IMG/VR virus record: IMGVR_UViG_2548876696_000013
Length of the DNA stretch: 16,659 nucleotides
Source: a virus
Lineage: Duplodnaviria; Heunggongvirae; Uroviricota; Caudoviricetes
Strand: one strand, 5' to 3'
Below the pieces are notes generated by a model, which was not told the origin of the DNA, searched no databases, and saw only the letters and a program-made list of their open reading frames with translations. This document shows, piece after piece, positions 1,462 through 15,429 of this stretch. Position numbers and translations under genes: made by a program. Positions within the stretch are counted from its first letter, which is position 1. Each line of letters starts with the position of its first letter.

Positions 1462-1583
1462 ATATGTCCTTTTATCATTACACCAGGTCAAGTCATTGAT
1501 TTAATTAAACAATTATCATTGAAAAAGTGCCAAAAATCGCAAATTGACTACACCATTAACTACACCGTTCGGTGCACTGTATG

Positions 1584-1609
1584 AAACAACGTGGAACAAA
1601 TAGACACAA
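1584..1609 (+). repeat. Three 10-bp-phased NNACAA hexamers (AAACAA-cgtg-GAACAA-atag-ACACAA); candidate recombination-directionality-factor or regulator binding array near the island terminus
   Basis: Hexamers at 1584, 1594 and 1604 with exact 10-bp spacing. The 14-mer ACAACGTGGAACAA at 1586-1599 is identical to the one at 9161-9174. Confidence 0.5.
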
Positions 1610-7747: not shown

Positions 7748-7756
7748 AAAACACTA

Positions 7757-7776
7757 AAGGGGCTTTTAAGCCCCTT
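7757..7776 (-). terminator. Intra-operon hairpin (GGGGCTT-AAGCCCC) followed by a U-rich tract, between the capsid and protease genes
   Basis: Hairpin directly seen in sequence. On the minus-strand transcript it is followed by UUUAGUGUUUUAU. Likely a partial terminator that sets capsid-to-downstream stoichiometry. Confidence 0.5.
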
Positions 7777-7786
7777 CTGTATGCTG

Positions 7787-8944
7787 TTAATCGTCGTCCT
7801 GTGGCAGTTCCAGAATCTTGATCGCGTTCGAATCCACCACGCCACCGCCTAAATATTTCTGCGTGAAAATTTTGATGAAGCCCGGCTCTGTGAGGTTGTC
7901 CGGTCTGGTGCGAACACCTGTTTCGTGATCAACAATGTAGTAACCGCGTTTGAAGTCACCCAGGGCAATAACGTTATCAGGCATAAACTCCAGATATTCG
8001 ACCGGAAGGCCCAGCAACGTATCAGGATCACCCGCCTGTAAACGGTCGCGCCAGATGTAATCACCGTTCGCGTTCTTCACCTTCTGAAGTTTTGCCGCCG
8101 TCGTGGAGTTAACCACCCAGACCGCGTTTTTGCGGTATTTTTTACGTAATGCAAATTTCAGGTCGATCAACGGGTCCGCAGATGTCCACGCCAGAGATTC
8201 GGAAGGTTTAATTACCTGCAACGTACCAAAATCACGCTCTTTGTCGTTCTTCTCTGCACGGGGTACGGATAAAAAGCCTTTTGCTTTTTTGTCACCGTCG
8301 CCCACAACCAGATCGCTTTCTTCGGTTTCCGTGAAGGTGTCGCCAATCTCACCCGTCAGCCATGAAAGGATGTCCACATCGGAAAAATCCACGATTTCCT
8401 GTGTGGTGCGCGGGTACGCATAGACCGGATACAGCTTAATGCTCACCTCGTTAATCTGCGGGGTGCTGGTCTGTTCGCGTGTCTTACCCTCTTCACCGTG
8501 GTTAACGGTCGCACCGCCAGCGGAAACAAGCTGCTTAAACTCGTTGCTGCTGATTTTCTTCACGGTACAGATGCGGCGCATGGTGGACTCATCCGCCAGC
8601 ATTCGCATGATTTCGGTGTTCAGCTCGGGGATAACGGTATAACCACCATCAGCGGGAACGCCTGTACTTAATGCGCGGGTTTCACCCGTCAGAATGTAGT
8701 TTCGTAGTTCTGCGGGGTCAGTGGTCTGACTGCTTTTACCTGGCTTGCTGCGCTCTTCGTCTGCAATGGCTTCAAGGCGGGAAATGTCTTTATCGAGGGA
8801 TTCAGCTTTAGCGCGTAATTCGTCAAATTTTGCGCCCTCAGCATCGTTAAGACTGCGGTTTTCTTTTTCCGCGTTCTCCAGCATGTCGCGCATCTGATTT
8901 TTAATGGCGGTTTTCTGCTGGCGTAATTCGATTATTCTCGGCAT
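7787..8944 (-). CDS. Major capsid protein, HK97 fold, with N-terminal coiled-coil delta (scaffold) domain (385 aa)
   Basis: N-terminal 100 aa are charged and helical (delta-domain-like), followed by a capsid-like body. First gene of the head operon. Confidence 0.9.
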   Translation of the reverse strand: MPRIIELRQQKTAIKNQMRDMLENAEKENRSLNDAEGAKFDELRAKAESLDKDISRLEAIADEERSKPGKSSQTTDPAELRNYILTGETRALSTGVPADGGYTVIPELNTEIMRMLADESTMRRICTVKKISSNEFKQLVSAGGATVNHGEEGKTREQTSTPQINEVSIKLYPVYAYPRTTQEIVDFSDVDILSWLTGEIGDTFTETEESDLVVGDGDKKAKGFLSVPRAEKNDKERDFGTLQVIKPSESLAWTSADPLIDLKFALRKKYRKNAVWVVNSTTAAKLQKVKNANGDYIWRDRLQAGDPDTLLGLPVEYLEFMPDNVIALGDFKRGYYIVDHETGVRTRPDNLTEPGFIKIFTQKYLGGGVVDSNAIKILELPQDDD

Positions 8945-8981
8945 AAAAAAAGTCCTGGGGTTAAGTAAGGAACTCCAGGAC
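8945..8981 (-). promoter_or_regulatory. Leader hairpin plus 7-nt A/U tract directly abutting the capsid start codon
   Basis: Stem GTCCTGG (8952-8958) pairs with CCAGGAC (8975-8981). On the mRNA the hairpin is followed by U7 and then the AUG at 8944; the only purine-rich SD-like element sits in the 3' arm of the stem. Confidence 0.5.
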
Positions 8982-9157
8982 GCGGCAAAAACTCAACCGT
9001 TTTTCATAAGGGAATCAGCAATCGCACCGATCGTTTTCCCGCCTGGTAATGAATATTGGCGAGCACATTAACAGGCGGGAAAGTGGCCCCAGCGTCCTGG
9101 CACCACGGGCGAGAATAATCATGATTCAGTTCGGGTAAAATATGCCGATCCGCTCAG

Positions 9158-9205
9158 TGAACAACGTGGAACAACCACGAACAAATAATTTACAAAAAAT
9201 AACAA
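9158..9205 (+). promoter_or_regulatory. Array of 10-bp-phased GAACAA hexamers upstream of the capsid operon; candidate activator-binding site
   Basis: GAACAA at 9159, 9169 and 9179 with spacers CGTG, CCAC and ATAA; two weaker ACAA copies follow at 9192 and 9202. Same motif family as 1584-1609 and 15338-15383. Confidence 0.5.
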
Positions 9206-9225
9206 AAAGCCGGATTGCTCCGGCT
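9192..9225 (-). terminator. Rho-independent terminator after the 74-aa gene
   Basis: Hairpin AGCCGGA-ttgc-TCCGGCT (9208-9225) followed on the minus strand by a U-rich tract; the gene's stop codon is at 9236. Confidence 0.7.
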
Positions 9226-9235
9226 GTATGGGTGC

Positions 9236-9460
9236 TCAGTCCCTGATCCCTTTCAGAAATTCTATCAATGCATCTGTCTGTTCAGGATTTACCGCCAGCA
9301 TTTCACCGGATAGCGCGCAACGAACAAAACCATGATGATCCTTTTCAATCAGCGCCCCCGTTTCCAGGAATGCTCGGTAATCAGTGATGTTCATCGTCTC
9401 CATGTTGTCAGCATGGTATTTATCACGCTGTTTTAATATCTCATCAAATTTCGTCGGCAT
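9236..9460 (-). CDS. Hypothetical protein (74 aa), insulated monocistronic gene
   Basis: Start chosen at the internal ATG (9458-9460), which has GAGGA 7 nt upstream. Flanked on both sides by near-identical terminator hairpins. Confidence 0.55.
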   Translation of the reverse strand: MPTKFDEILKQRDKYHADNMETMNITDYRAFLETGALIEKDHHGFVRCALSGEMLAVNPEQTDALIEFLKGIRD

Positions 9461-9554: not shown

Positions 9555-9578
9555 CAAAAAAGCCGGATTGCTCCGGCT
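9555..9578 (-). terminator. Rho-independent terminator after the PerC-like gene (same hairpin sequence as 9208-9225)
   Basis: Hairpin AGCCGGATTGCTCCGGCT at 9561-9578 preceded on the plus strand by A6 (U6 on the minus-strand transcript). Upstream stop codon at 9601. Confidence 0.7.
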
Positions 9579-9600
9579 GCGTGGTGTGGTTCTGATATTC

Positions 9601-9849
9601 CTACTCAGCTAATTTGCTCAGCCCCATGTCTGCATAAGTGCGATTTACTGCATTTCTCAGGTCTGCGTAGTTCTCCGTTGGCGGCTCCGGTGGCCTCTGT
9701 GCCTTCCTGGAACATTCCAGCCGTCGCATCGTAACCTGATGCCGTTCCTTGTCTGTCTCCACCAGCTGCATGACTTCACCCCATCGCGCCGCCGCCCTCC
9801 GGTAAAATCCTTTCGCCTCGAGTTCCTCCGCTATGCGGTCATGTACCAT
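9601..9849 (-). CDS. PerC/ANR-like small transcriptional regulator (82 aa from the internal start MVHDR)
   Basis: Start chosen immediately after the SSB stop, with a strong SD (GAGGGGGTGAGG then ATG). The motif AEELEAKGFYRRAAARWGEV resembles the PerC-family core from memory. The longer ORF to 9969 would overlap SSB. Confidence 0.45.
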   Translation of the reverse strand: MVHDRIAEELEAKGFYRRAAARWGEVMQLVETDKERHQVTMRRLECSRKAQRPPEPPTENYADLRNAVNRTYADMGLSKLAE

Positions 9850-10719: not shown

Positions 10720-12129
10720 TTACAGCGGGCGCACGTCATCACCGTCAATAACGATTACGCCATCATTTTCCAGCTTGTACAGCCAGCGCCGGAAGTGCTT
10801 CATCTCATACCCCAGCTTTTTCATATCATCGCGGAGAAGGGCGATAGTGCACGCCTCCCCGTGTGCTGTTCGTGTTCTGATGCACTGCCATAGCGCGGCG
10901 TGATTCTCCGTCTTGTTCCCTGCCTCCTCGATGCGCTCCAGTTCAACGGGAGGGCGCGGCTTATCCACCACCACCAGCGACGTGATTAACTCCCCGTCAG
11001 CGTCGGTAAAAAGCTCCACCACCCGCAAATCATAGGCAGCCTCTTTGAGTTCCTCCGCGTCCTTCATTTTGGTGCATGAGATAACCAGCGCTTCGCTTCC
11101 TGCGTCCTCCCTGCGTATCCGGTATTCAGCATCCAGTGATGCACGAAATGCACTGGAACCGCGCGCGCCTTTCGTCTCATCCTTGCCGGAATGGTGAACC
11201 ACCAGCACCGTGGCCCCTGTGCGCCGTTTCAGTTCGTCACACCCACGGATAAACGCCCCCATGTCACGGGAATCATTTTCGTCATTGCCGCCAAAGCAAC
11301 GCGCCAGCGTGTCCAGAATAATCATGCGAACAGGTTTACCCGTTTCCCGCTCAACCTGGCTGGCAGCAATAACCAGTTCATCAACATCAAGCGGGACAGC
11401 CGGAAAGATGGGACGGTTTACAAGGTAAAGATTTTTCACCTGCTCCCCGTGCACAACCTCCCAGGCTTTTACACGACGCGGAACGCCAATACCGCCTTCA
11501 CCAACCACATAGAGAACAGCGCCATGCGCCACCCTGCGGCCTCCCCACTGGCGGCCCGTGGAAACGTGACACGCCCACGATCCGGCAAGGAATGATTTAT
11601 AGGAACCGCTCGCCCCGTATATGCTGCAAAGCGACGATGCCGGAATAATCCCCTTTACCACGTAATCAAGCTGTGTGTCGTATCCGGTAGATCCAACGCT
11701 CATCGGTAGCGTGGTTTTTCGCTGGGGGATTTTTTTCATGACCAGGCTTTCCCCGCGTTCCCATGCCTCCCTAAGCCGTGGAAGCTGGTCGTTCCATTCC
11801 TCCAGCAATTCGAAATTTTCAGAAAGTAGCCGCGCCTCCTGGACTCCGGCGATCGCCAGTTTCGTGGCGATGGTTAACAGCTGCGGCTCTTCAATATTTC
11901 CGGCGCGTATCACCGTCGCCCTGTATCGCCCATCATCAACAATCTGGAGGTTATCCAGTTCGCTTAACTGATAACGCCCCAGATAAACGGGAGGGACTGG
12001 ATCGCCTGCTTTTTTGGCCTGTGCAATGATGTAGTGCTCTGCAAATGAGTGCGCATTATTCCCCGCGAAAATAATTGCTTCGGTGTATTTGTCTTTCGGT
12101 AATAGTTTTACGTTCGGTGCAAGTTTCAT
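10720..12129 (-). CDS. Replication initiation ATPase / helicase-like protein, RecA-fold AAA type (469 aa)
   Basis: Walker A motif GASGSYKS, Walker B-like MIILDTLARCF, and a C-terminal putative winged-helix region. Position immediately upstream of the iterons. Confidence 0.8.
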   Translation of the reverse strand: MKLAPNVKLLPKDKYTEAIIFAGNNAHSFAEHYIIAQAKKAGDPVPPVYLGRYQLSELDNLQIVDDGRYRATVIRAGNIEEPQLLTIATKLAIAGVQEARLLSENFELLEEWNDQLPRLREAWERGESLVMKKIPQRKTTLPMSVGSTGYDTQLDYVVKGIIPASSLCSIYGASGSYKSFLAGSWACHVSTGRQWGGRRVAHGAVLYVVGEGGIGVPRRVKAWEVVHGEQVKNLYLVNRPIFPAVPLDVDELVIAASQVERETGKPVRMIILDTLARCFGGNDENDSRDMGAFIRGCDELKRRTGATVLVVHHSGKDETKGARGSSAFRASLDAEYRIRREDAGSEALVISCTKMKDAEELKEAAYDLRVVELFTDADGELITSLVVVDKPRPPVELERIEEAGNKTENHAALWQCIRTRTAHGEACTIALLRDDMKKLGYEMKHFRRWLYKLENDGVIVIDGDDVRPL

Positions 12130-12425
12130 TTTTTACCCCTGAATACGTTCAACATCTTTCTTATTTCCTGAATATTGGCGCGTGCTTTCTCCCTGCTGGT
12201 GGGCACGTTACGCGGTACAGCCTGCACCAGAGAAAAATCACGGTCGAACTGATAAACAGGCATAACGCAATCATATTCGTAGCCTTCACGGCGGTAAGTT
12301 ACGCGCCGTTCCTCCACGCCCTTAATCATTACCGTGCCGCCGTACTGGTCGCGGTAAATATCACCGCGCGTAAATTTAGGGTGAGTGTTGCCACTGGCAG
12401 TTAAGCCAGGATATTTAAGTTTCAT
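12126..12425 (-). CDS. DUF4222-like small protein (99 aa)
   Basis: The pattern GDIYRDQYGGTVMIKGVEERRVTYRREGYEYDCVMPVYQF resembles the DUF4222 family often found next to satellite or prophage replication genes (from memory). ATGA overlap with the rep gene. Confidence 0.55.
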   Translation of the reverse strand: MKLKYPGLTASGNTHPKFTRGDIYRDQYGGTVMIKGVEERRVTYRREGYEYDCVMPVYQFDRDFSLVQAVPRNVPTSREKARANIQEIRKMLNVFRGKK

Positions 12426-12821: not shown

Positions 12822-13107
12822 GTGAAAGGCTCCCAGATGAAATTTAAGGAGTCTCGCTACTACGCTGCTAAACGGGGTGGCGAGACGTAACAGGGTTAGC
12901 AGACTGGTCATCTGGAAACCAGCGAGCGCAAAGGCTCCCCCGTTACGCCCCGCCATAATGCGGGTATGGGTAGGTTTACGGACACAAAAAAACCGCTTAT
13001 CGGATATGGGCGGCTGTCCGCCAGATGTATTCAGGCTGCTAAACCCGGTCGCCATGTGGGCGACGGGTGAAGCATACAGCCCCGTTATAATTTTTTGCAA
13101 GCGGCTT

Positions 13108-14130: not shown

Positions 14131-14164
14131 TTGTGTGTAATGTGTATATACACATAAACACATT
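14131..14164. promoter_or_regulatory. Operator-like 16-bp perfect palindrome ATGTGTATATACACAT (14140-14155) overlapping a putative -10 element
   Basis: Perfect palindrome seen directly. Possible promoter TTGTGC (14122-14127), 17-nt spacer, TATATA (14145-14150). Confidence 0.45.
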
Positions 14165-14182
14165 ATATGGGGTGTAATTGAC

Positions 14183-14362
14183 GTGTCAACACACAAGAAT
14201 GAAAGGCGTGGTAATCCTCCTTTCCAGTTCCGTTTAGATCCTGACTTACGGGAAAAGATGGAAAAAGCACAACAACAAGACGGTGATGACTCTTTAGCTG
14301 CTTGGATAAAACGAATAATCCGAAAAGAATTACAGCAACGCGGTATTGAACCCAAAGAATAA
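14183..14362 (+). CDS. Arc-like ribbon-helix-helix protein (59 aa, GTG start)
   Basis: Absent from the supplied ORF track because it is only 59 aa. GGGGTG SD 8 nt upstream of GTG at 14183. The pattern PPFQFRLDPDLREKMEKAQQQDGDDSLAAWIKRIIRKEL matches the Arc/RHH fold. Confidence 0.5.
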   Translation: MSTHKNERRGNPPFQFRLDPDLREKMEKAQQQDGDDSLAAWIKRIIRKELQQRGIEPKE

Positions 14363-15246: not shown

Positions 15247-15337
15247 CGCACGCTTTAACGCGTAATTCACTAATGTATAAAAAACCAGCTAAGCATTAAA
15301 AATCAGTAACTTATAAATCTGTATTCTTTTTGGCCTC

Positions 15338-15383
15338 TTGTTCGTGATTGTGTCACGTTGTTGCACATTGTTTCACGTTGTAT
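15338..15383 (-). promoter_or_regulatory. Five exactly 10-bp-phased NNACAA hexamers (minus-strand orientation) with CGTG/TGTG spacers
   Basis: Plus-strand TTGTTC, TTGTGT, TTGTTG, TTGTTT and TTGTAT at 15338, 15348, 15358, 15368 and 15378. Located 47-92 bp downstream of the int stop codon. Confidence 0.55.
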
Positions 15384-15429
15384 CTGTGCACTTATCCAGT
15401 ATGCGCATACTGAAAAAACACGAAAAAAA

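Follow-up and report, generated by a model that had tools for sequence, protein, structure and literature searches.

The stretch of DNA analyzed here (16,659 nucleotides, IMG/VR record IMGVR_UViG_2548876696_000013; hereafter the window) is a capsid-forming PICI (cf-PICI), an Escherichia coli phage satellite of the OI-51/CP-933C/Sp7 type. The island lies between roxA and phoQ and contains int, alpA, repA, ssb, and perC/pchE, as well as the genes for capsid, protease, portal, connectors, HNH, terS, and terL; this gene set is shared with EcCIEDL933, the prototype cf-PICI. An identical copy of the leader described below was found in E. coli 00-3076, where the island is located between roxA and phoQ. 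The 00-3076 island also contains a small HTH gene (AlpA), genes for an Icd-like protein, DUF4222, the RepA helicase, SSB, and PerC, and one hypothetical gene; tail and lysis genes are absent. The counterpart in the Sakai genome is prophage Sp7, identical to OI-51/CP-933C, with pchE, ECs_1589, and the major head gene ECs_1590. Earlier work ties this island of EHEC to colonisation. Satellites of this kind have been described as very prevalent, and a preprint reports that cf-PICIs, EcCIEDL933 among them, form packaged capsids lacking tails when no helper is induced (bioRxiv 10.1101/2025.02.11.637232). In the cf-PICI literature searched, the promoter, the terminators, the leader, and the switching-on of the packaging operon are not discussed.

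The packaging operon extends from the capsid gene to terL. Its first gene, located on the minus strand at 7787-8944, encodes the major capsid protein of 385 aa and is followed directly, on the same strand, by a terminator-like hairpin (7777-7756). In loci with other leader types, the hairpin after the capsid gene has the canonical form, with a GC stem, a UUCG loop, and U5-6. Upstream of the capsid gene, a 74-aa ORF (phrog_1957, 9460-9236) ends at a minus-strand stop codon at 9236. It is followed by an intrinsic terminator, AGCCGGAGCAAUCCGGCU with a U-run (9225-9208, minus strand), detected by both the terminator scan and the repeat search; a second identical copy of this terminator is located at 9578-9561. 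The 9225-9208 terminator ends the upstream unit, which comprises replication and accessory genes together with the 74-aa ORF. Since this strong terminator closes the upstream unit, the packaging operon forms a separate transcription unit with its own promoter.

Related loci were collected from E. coli genomes and, by means of the 17-mer TTGTAAATTATTTGTTC, from viral contigs; a scan of genome contigs with the capsid alignment yielded 5 loci only. A promoter-like element was found on the minus strand of the window, with the -35 hexamer TTTACC at 9139-9134 and the -10 hexamer TATTCT at 9117-9112. The layout of this element (-35, 16-nt spacer, -10, 5 nt, and then the first G of the 5'-terminal hairpin, HP1) is constant in 46 distinct variants. 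TTTAC[T/A/C] was found at the fixed -35 position in 39 of these 46 variants, and TAnnnT with the same spacing in all of them, including six different -10 hexamers (TATCTT, TATGTT, TATTCT, TACCTT, TAAATT, and TATATT). The window reads TTTACC/TATTCT/GTGGTG, i.e., the family promoter followed by a 5' hairpin with a GACG loop. The element matches the consensus at 8 of 12 positions and falls under the threshold of the promoter scanner. Because the variation spares only the key -10 positions and the spacing is fixed, as a sigma-70 promoter predicts, the segment 9139-9112 is, on sequence comparison, a weak sigma-70 promoter of the capsid operon and not a part of the leader. From the geometry of this promoter, transcription is expected to start at about 9106/9105, the first bases of HP1, giving a leader of about 160 nt (9106-8945).

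Upstream of the promoter, the conserved TTGTAAATTATTTGTTC is followed by three TTGTTC repeats with a 10-bp period (9195-9159, minus strand), at approximately -54 to -90 relative to the predicted start site; 4 matches to the repeat were found, vs. 0.54 expected. A near-identical cluster of five repeats is located in the int-alpA spacer (about 15335-15385, plus strand), and a third cluster was found at the phoQ end of the island (1574-1608), adjoining two GGTGTAGT repeats, which are possible arm sites of the integrase. The same three-cluster pattern was found in the related loci L042 and L122, and locus L082 has the int-alpA and leader clusters. Phased direct repeats next to such possible arm sites are typical of excisionase sites. 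The AlpA protein of the island (62 aa, PF05930, 5e-18) is a winged-helix protein of the excisionase type, and published work has demonstrated that AlpA is required for induction of this element. Since the repeats resemble excisionase sites and AlpA is the excisionase-type protein of the island and is needed for induction, the TTGTTC repeats are probably sites for AlpA acting as the excisionase/activator of the island, and initiation at the capsid promoter is probably AlpA-dependent.

The leader contains three main structural elements, all on the minus strand. HP1 (GUGGUGCCAGGACGCUGGGGCCAC, consisting of GUGGUGCCAG-GACG-CUGGGGCCAC; 9106-9083, -15.6 kcal/mol) forms the 5' end. It is directly adjoined by HP2 (9082-9035, -22.6 kcal/mol), which represents the long second hairpin of the leader family and has the arms CCCGCCTG/CAGGCGGG; in the inverted-repeat search these arms (9035-9051 and 9066-9082) are 17 nt long and 94% complementary. 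Approximately 50 nt of weaker structure separate HP2 from the terminal hairpin. The 271-nt stretch that was folded has a predicted energy of -93 kcal/mol vs. -69.2 +/- 5.2 for shuffled sequences, and 0 of 200 shuffles were as good (z = -4.6). A further perfect inverted repeat of 11 nt connects 8930-8940 with 9110-9120.

Immediately before the capsid gene, the transcript reads GCGUCCUGGAGUUCCUUACUUAACCCCAGGAC (8983-8952), UUUUUUU, and AUG (8944-8942). The terminal hairpin (8981-8952, minus strand, -13.0 kcal/mol) is formed by 7 bp, an A/C mismatch, and 3 bp, with a loop of 8 nt; its arms (8952-8962 and 8971-8981) are 11 nt long and 91% complementary in the inverted-repeat search. The 7-bp stem contains 5 G-C pairs. 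Including the flanks, the energy is -14.1 kcal/mol, a value reached by 3.6% of the 40-nt windows on the minus strand. The U7 tract (8951-8945, minus strand; U8 in some relatives) starts from the base directly after the stem, so that stem and tract together have the complete geometry of an intrinsic terminator; the tract would serve both as the terminator tail and as the spacer between the SD and the AUG. Within 20 nt of the AUG, AGGA (8956-8953) is the sole purine-rich stretch, and it is located inside the 3' arm CCAGGAC (8958-8952). A simple terminator scanner omitted the hairpin, probably because the scanner does not allow a mismatched stem. A leaderless mRNA starting from a promoter inside the hairpin was also considered and rejected, as no -10-like hexamer was found at -12 to -7 of the AUG.

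For the RNA up to U7, the predicted fold consists of HP1, HP2, and the terminator (-64.0 kcal/mol), with a pair probability of 0.995 for the terminator; in folding prediction, the closed form of the terminal hairpin thus predominates. These results bear on a first-pass annotation of the region, made from the sequence alone. The 7-bp stem at 8952-8981, the U7 tract, and the AUG at 8944 were found as described there, with the stem extended by the mismatch and three pairs, and the placement of the sole SD-like element inside the 3' arm was also correct. The second upstream hairpin, HP2, is real and longer than claimed (9082-9035, with arms of 17 nt, vs. about 9036-9077). The proposal that the whole of 8945-9157 is a structured leader is valid for 9106-8945; the segment 9112-9157 is promoter and upstream DNA and lies outside the transcript.

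An alternative is an explanation by translation or RNA stability only, in which the hairpin reduces capsid translation, sets its timing, or protects the mRNA, with little termination. The U7 tract would then act as a spacer or be bound by ribosomal protein S1, and the terminator look would be incidental. The 8-nt loop and the internal mismatch are indeed not ideal for a terminator, and capsids are made without any known antiterminator. Nevertheless, a GC-rich stem of -13 kcal/mol flush with seven or eight U is the defining geometry of an intrinsic terminator. Additionally, just three T runs of at least 6 nt on the minus strand directly adjoin a hairpin that reaches -10 kcal/mol, and the two besides U7 follow identical AGCCGGAGCAATCCGGCT hairpins located after genes. 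The U tract (U7 or U8) is retained in 24 of 24 distinct relatives. What the leader family has in common, as described below, is a hairpin that covers the ribosome-binding site and has no U tract, which fits the translation-only explanation; on balance, we regard this explanation as unlikely, though it deserves more weight than the antitermination, small-RNA, DNA-site, and leftover explanations discussed below.

In total, 61 distinct leaders were found in about 100 related loci, and they share a common plan of HP1, HP2, and a hairpin over the ribosome-binding site. These leaders form three groups: the window type (15 distinct leaders in the first collection and 24 distinct longer segments), the main type (38 distinct leaders in the first collection), and a third clade typified by L015. 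RNAalifold analysis of the 38 main-type leaders demonstrated that HP1 is almost invariant and that most of the 9 pairs in the outer stem of HP2 have 10-13 double-sided compensatory changes; the inner helix of the third hairpin, HP3, covaries as well. In single-sequence folds, the main-type HP3 (GGUUUC-A-CGU...ACG-GAAACC) ends 5-6 nt upstream of the AUG. In 8 of 8 folded leaders of the main type and the L015 clade, the SD-like purines are located in the 3' arm with an unpaired probability of 0.0. None of the main-type and L015-clade leaders has a U tract, the U7/terminator form being limited to the window lineage. Because most members of the leader family are without a U tract, termination cannot be the common function of the family.

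A covariance model built from the main-type leaders recognizes the L015 clade, which was not used for building, with scores of 85-131 bits. The window leader was missed by this model under default filters; with the filters off, it scored 12.2 bits (E = 0.0025 in 401 nt). The 12.2-bit alignment spans HP1, HP2, and a relic start only, and places the capsid start on AUGAAAAAC at 9007. By this weak match, the segment AUGAAAAACGGUUGA (8993-9007, minus strand) is probably a relic of the ancestral capsid start. The terminal hairpin of the window type is not homologous in sequence to the main-type hairpin; it has the same two properties, an SD in the 3' arm and a 5' arm complementary to the apex of HP1. 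Thus, the window leader appears to be a divergent member of the family whose last 65 nt or so, including the hairpin and U7, are a lineage-specific replacement, and the terminal hairpin would be one lineage's stronger version of the family-wide hairpin over the ribosome-binding site. No Rfam 15 family matches the leader at E <= 10, and searching the literature for the exact sequences of the leader and for small RNAs of Sp7 gave nothing. The leader had no match in 50,697 phage records, so an origin as copied phage DNA was rejected. The family is therefore absent from Rfam and undescribed in the papers searched; its kind, a leader attenuator or translational operator, is known.

The terminal 68 nt were found in 359 of 5426 E. 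coli genomes and, among the matches listed, occur directly ahead of this capsid gene and in no other context. Among 24 distinct close relatives, nucleotide diversity is 0.012 in HP1, 0.020 in the hairpin with U7, 0.020 in the promoter, 0.022 in HP2, 0.040 in the middle segment, and 0.054 at the third codon positions of the capsid gene. Hence, the diversity of the hairpin with U7, HP1, and HP2 is 2.5 to 4.5 times below that of the third codon positions. The close relatives bearing the hairpin are at least 95% identical and have no compensatory change in the terminal stem; three variants, with a G.U pair, a bulge, and a mismatch, respectively, make the stem weaker. One could suppose from these weakening variants, from the lineage-specific nature of the segment, and from the alignment of the relic AUGAAAAAC to the ancestral start codon that the terminal 65 nt arrived with a recombination that replaced the 5' end of the capsid gene, and that the hairpin and U7 are a functionless leftover. 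The diversity below that of synonymous-like sites, the retention of the segment in the 359 genomes, and its perfect 9-nt match to a co-changed HP1 apex all argue against such a neutral origin, which we consider very improbable.

The 9-nt match connects the two ends of the leader. The apex of HP1, CCAGGACGC (9100-9092), is perfectly complementary to GCGUCCUGG (8983-8975, minus strand), which consists of the terminal hairpin's 5' arm and two further bases; the duplex has a predicted energy of -17.1 kcal/mol. An equivalent match was found in both other groups: in the main type, AGACGUGA (the HP1 loop and 3' side) complements UCACGUCU in the 5' arm of HP3, and in the L015 clade, GACGGGA complements UCCCGUC. 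The matches in the three clades are 9, 8, and 7 nt long and were equaled in 4, 32, and 117, respectively, of 5000 trials in which the 3' segment was shuffled. In the anchored alignment of apex and arm, 80.9% of the cells pair, vs. at most 48% with the partner slid, and the covariation score is 0.179 vs. 0.089 +/- 0.014. For the pair next to the HP1 loop, the three clades have U-A, C-G, or G-C, and the two positions are never unpaired. This covariation across the three clades represents two independent changes only, and the structure was derived from the same sequences. As a test, 5' arms with a base other than A at that position were searched for, and 12 of 12 loci found had C in the arm and, as predicted, G in HP1. 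Of the searches for further HP1 or arm variants, one gave zero matches and another gave four chance matches. The HP1 apex may thus pair with the 5' arm and open the terminal hairpin. When this pairing is forced, the predicted energy is -55.8 kcal/mol; since the closed form is favored over it by about 8 kcal/mol, refolding would need a factor or a kinetic route.

The same complementarity could instead reflect repeated DNA sites. CCAGGAC/GTCCTGG occurs three times in this region and AGACGTGA/TCACGTCT in relatives, and these repeats might be sites at which a regulator loops or blocks the promoter-proximal DNA, the RNA pairing being a by-product. HP1 spans +1 to +24, a common position for an operator, both partner sequences are nearly invariant within each clade, and repeated sites covarying with a changing protein specificity would mimic RNA pairing. 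The sites are, on the other hand, asymmetric and about 100 bp apart, no candidate protein tracks the three clades, and HP2, located between them, varies freely in sequence yet keeps its pairing, which is a signature of RNA structure rather than of a protein site. Regulation through such DNA sites therefore seems highly unlikely to be the explanation. A function of HP1 as a cos site was also considered; it is unlikely since HNH-terminase systems have cos placed next to terS. In the cf-PICI paper, cos was not mapped.

The explanation that we prefer, with a probability of about one half, is a default-off attenuator that also occludes the ribosome-binding site and is transcribed from the island's own promoter. 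According to this model, the last hairpin of the leader was rebuilt in the window lineage as a GC-rich stem with U7. By default, a large share of the transcripts would be stopped at 8951-8945, and in the transcripts that read through, the SD would stay paired. The output would be set by the island through the weak promoter beneath the phased TTGTTC repeats, which are probably AlpA sites. The hairpin may open through pairing of the apex (9100-9092) with the 5' arm (8983-8975), by which the terminator would be lost and the SD released at the same time. Several points speak against this model: the missing U tract in most of the family, the weakening variants and the lack of compensatory change in the stem, the lower predicted stability of the refolded form, the small number of independent changes behind the three-clade covariation, the possible origin of the apex-arm complementarity in DNA sites, and the odd fit of a strong block with the high output demanded of a capsid gene. 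A related and bolder explanation, which we hold to be possible and distinctly less probable than the attenuator, is that the leaders constitute an undescribed riboregulator family. In this case, the sequence-invariant 5' hairpin would be the lock, its loop and flank being able to pair with the 5' arm of the hairpin that covers the ribosome-binding site and here doubles as the terminator; a signal from the island or the host would flip the pairing and thereby time capsid production.

The first-pass annotation had suggested that expression of the head genes is gated by antitermination or by opening of a structure sequestering the ribosome-binding site, possibly through a helper-phage factor. The sequestering part agrees with the buried SD-like element in all eight main-type and L015-clade leaders folded and with the closed form predicted here. 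The antitermination part is only partially consistent with the data: the intrinsic-terminator geometry is complete, and the terminator is restricted to one lineage, no Q or N gene is present, and the AlpA of the island is unrelated to the Q-like protein of that name. A helper factor is not required; because cf-PICI capsids are reported to form without helper induction (10.1101/2025.02.11.637232), the block has no strict dependence on a helper product.

RefSeq annotation and Pfam scans found no antiterminator gene of the Q or N type in the island. The genes upstream of the promoter encode PerC (PF06069) and the phrog_1957 protein, with no Q-family gene beside the promoter. Such a gene was found in the relative L004/L005, a satellite of Symbiopectobacterium with a 66% identical capsid, where a PF06530 Q antiterminator gene (2e-36) is located directly upstream of a leader with a hairpin and a T6 run before the capsid gene. 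This terminator-type leader downstream of a Q gene is one argument for processive antitermination resembling the control of the lambda late promoter, in which either a protein or the nascent HP1-HP2 RNA (similar to HK022 put) would modify the polymerase so that it reads through both the leader terminator and the post-capsid terminator. The second terminator after the capsid gene, present in all leader types checked, and the two adjacent stem-loops starting at +1 are also in line with this mechanism. The island itself has no protein of the Q/N families, however, and its AlpA differs from the Q-like protein of Pseudomonas; HP1 and HP2 occur without a leader terminator in most of the family; and leaky terminators after capsid genes commonly serve to set protein ratios. 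We consider processive antitermination improbable.

Several candidate partners of the leader were rejected. The 74-aa phrog_1957 protein is absent from 6 of 15 window-type and at least 9 main-type loci. PerC/PchE is encoded upstream in 15 of 15 window-type loci and also in some loci without the terminator, so it is not a terminator-specific partner. For pairing of a C4 antisense RNA with the leader, 142 of 300 shuffles were as good, the method being ill-suited to long RNAs. The AlpA of the island and the Pseudomonas AlpA-type antiterminator belong to different families with no detectable similarity; among solved structures at E <= 1, the sole AlpA-named match of the island protein is 8c3t, "AlpA family phage regulatory protein". 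The 74-aa phrog_1957 protein is 45% identical between divergent islands.

Finally, the terminated leader could itself be the product, i.e., a stable small RNA of about 160 nt that acts in trans, similar to lambda 6S RNA or StxS. A hairpin at the 5' end, a long one inside, and a terminator hairpin with a U tail at the 3' end constitute the usual form of a stable, chaperone-bound small RNA, and in some related islands a ProQ/FinO protein is encoded just upstream. No target was found for such an RNA, no match was found in Rfam or in the papers searched, and the family members without a terminator cannot release it. A small-RNA function, which we find doubtful to about the same degree as processive antitermination, is compatible with the attenuator and does not exclude it.

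The analysis locates the promoter of the cf-PICI packaging operon, whose control at the DNA level is likely exerted through the AlpA-type repeats. A leader RNA that is conserved and covaries was defined as well; its alignment is a starting point for a new RNA family, and its base pairs can be tested. These base pairs allow one to ask whether capsid output is set at initiation, termination, or translation. If the riboregulator explanation is true, the leader decides when the satellite makes its own capsids.

Known regulatory systems resemble the leader in various respects. In Pseudomonas aeruginosa, a protein named AlpA acts by antitermination at intrinsic terminators just upstream of the first gene of its target operons; it has eight helices, a Q21-like fold, and a DNA site between -35 and -10 (PMC7969949, PMC9371919). 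The name is shared with the master regulator of PICIs and is misleading, as the protein of the island is the 62-aa winged-helix protein of PF05930. The HK022 put RNA is similar in layout, with two adjacent stem-loops in the nascent leader upstream of terminators. It differs in that put acts in early operons, and most relatives of the leader analyzed here are without a leader terminator.

Lambda-type late control involves the Q gene, the promoter PR', the short 6S leader, and the terminator tR', and in Stx phages the terminated late leader is the small RNA StxS. The packaging operon shares with this system a dedicated promoter and a short structured leader with an intrinsic terminator ahead of the structural genes, and the related satellite L004 has exactly this module, including its Q gene. 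The differences are that the island has no Q gene and that most members of the leader family have no terminator. Additionally, the terminator here directly abuts the AUG and includes the SD, so that translation would not follow from read-through alone.

Long-range pairing between the 5' end and the ribosome-binding site is known from the upstream complementary sequence of the MS2 maturation gene and from the tac, ucb, and fbi elements of hok mRNA. As in these RNAs, a 5'-terminal element of the leader complements a strand at the ribosome-binding site, and the formation of a local hairpin at the 5' end is in competition with this distant pairing. The effect differs from that in MS2, where the SD is closed by the long-range pairing; here it would be opened. 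No processing step is known for this leader.

Two-output attenuators are exemplified by the trp leader of B. subtilis, which has a terminator and a hairpin sequestering the trpE SD, and by the expression platforms of riboswitches. No ligand, leader peptide, tRNA, or binding protein was identified for the leader in this analysis. The competing strands are about 110 nt apart here and the open form is predicted to be less stable, in which the leader differs from these attenuators. In common with them, the leader has two possible and mutually exclusive pairings, HP1 with the terminator or the HP1 apex with the 5' arm, and one hairpin would govern both termination and access to the SD.

A perfect 11-nt inverted repeat connects positions 8930-8940 of the window with positions 9110-9120. 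The arm at 9110-9120 corresponds to the -10 region of the capsid-operon promoter (GATTATTCTCG), and the arm at 8930-8940 to capsid codons 2-5 (CGAGAATAATC). Both arms would be expected solely in RNAs transcribed through from upstream, and in such read-in transcripts their pairing could mask the capsid start region. Single-base changes within the repeat were found in some close relatives, and the repeat is absent from leaders of the main type, one of the three leader groups.

Upstream of this promoter, a 28-nt direct repeat is present in two copies, at 9557-9584 and 9204-9231, which are 93% identical. Identical terminators lie inside both copies and flank a 74-aa phrog_1957 gene (9460-9236); where relatives lack the gene, just one terminator is present. 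The phrog_1957 gene looks like a cassette acquired or lost via recombination between the terminator copies. Another terminator-like hairpin (7756-7777, minus strand) is located directly 3' of the capsid gene, before the protease gene. Equivalent hairpins were found in the related loci L002 (7380-7428), L010, and L008; their position is conserved, and the stem sequence covaries across leader types.

Two related loci, L004 and L005, occupy different places on one contig of Symbiopectobacterium sp. RP and are identical across the 631 nt read. Each encodes a P4-type primase and a Q antiterminator (PF06530), with the Q gene followed by a leader containing a hairpin and a T6 run, and then by a capsid gene 66% identical to that of the window. 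These loci look like a capsid-forming satellite under Q control.

In some main-type islands, a gene for a ProQ/FinO-domain protein (PF04352, 9e-25; L002 5178-5717, also in L014, L021, and L116) is located two genes upstream of the leader. This protein is a candidate RNA-binding partner of the structured leader. In the window, a PerC-family gene (9601-9849, minus strand) lies directly upstream and corresponds to PchE of EHEC Sp7. A 99-aa DUF4222 protein (12126-12425, minus strand) is, from its size and location only, probably RgdR (ECs1581). To our knowledge, neither PchE nor RgdR has a known role inside the island. Their published effects are on virulence or motility genes of the host.

Clusters of TTGTNN repeats with a 10-bp period were found in the int-alpA spacer (15335-15385, plus strand) and near the phoQ end of the island (1574-1608, minus strand). 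The latter cluster is adjoined by two GGTGTAGT repeats, 12 nt apart (1547-1566, minus strand). These clusters and GGTGTAGT repeats probably serve as sites for the excisionase AlpA and as arm sites for the integrase.

The sole perfect sigma-70 consensus promoter in the window (14162-14189, minus strand; TTGACA, 16 nt, TATAAT; 12/12 matches) is oriented toward the region of the C4 RNA and an Icd-like gene. Here, at 12873-13077 (minus strand), Rfam matches were found for a C4 antisense RNA (RF01695, 71.6 bits, exceeding the gathering score) and its a1/b1 target (RF03163, 44.4 bits), with the Icd-like gene downstream. The C4 and a1/b1 pair in the early region of the island is an RNA immunity switch of the P1/P7 type.
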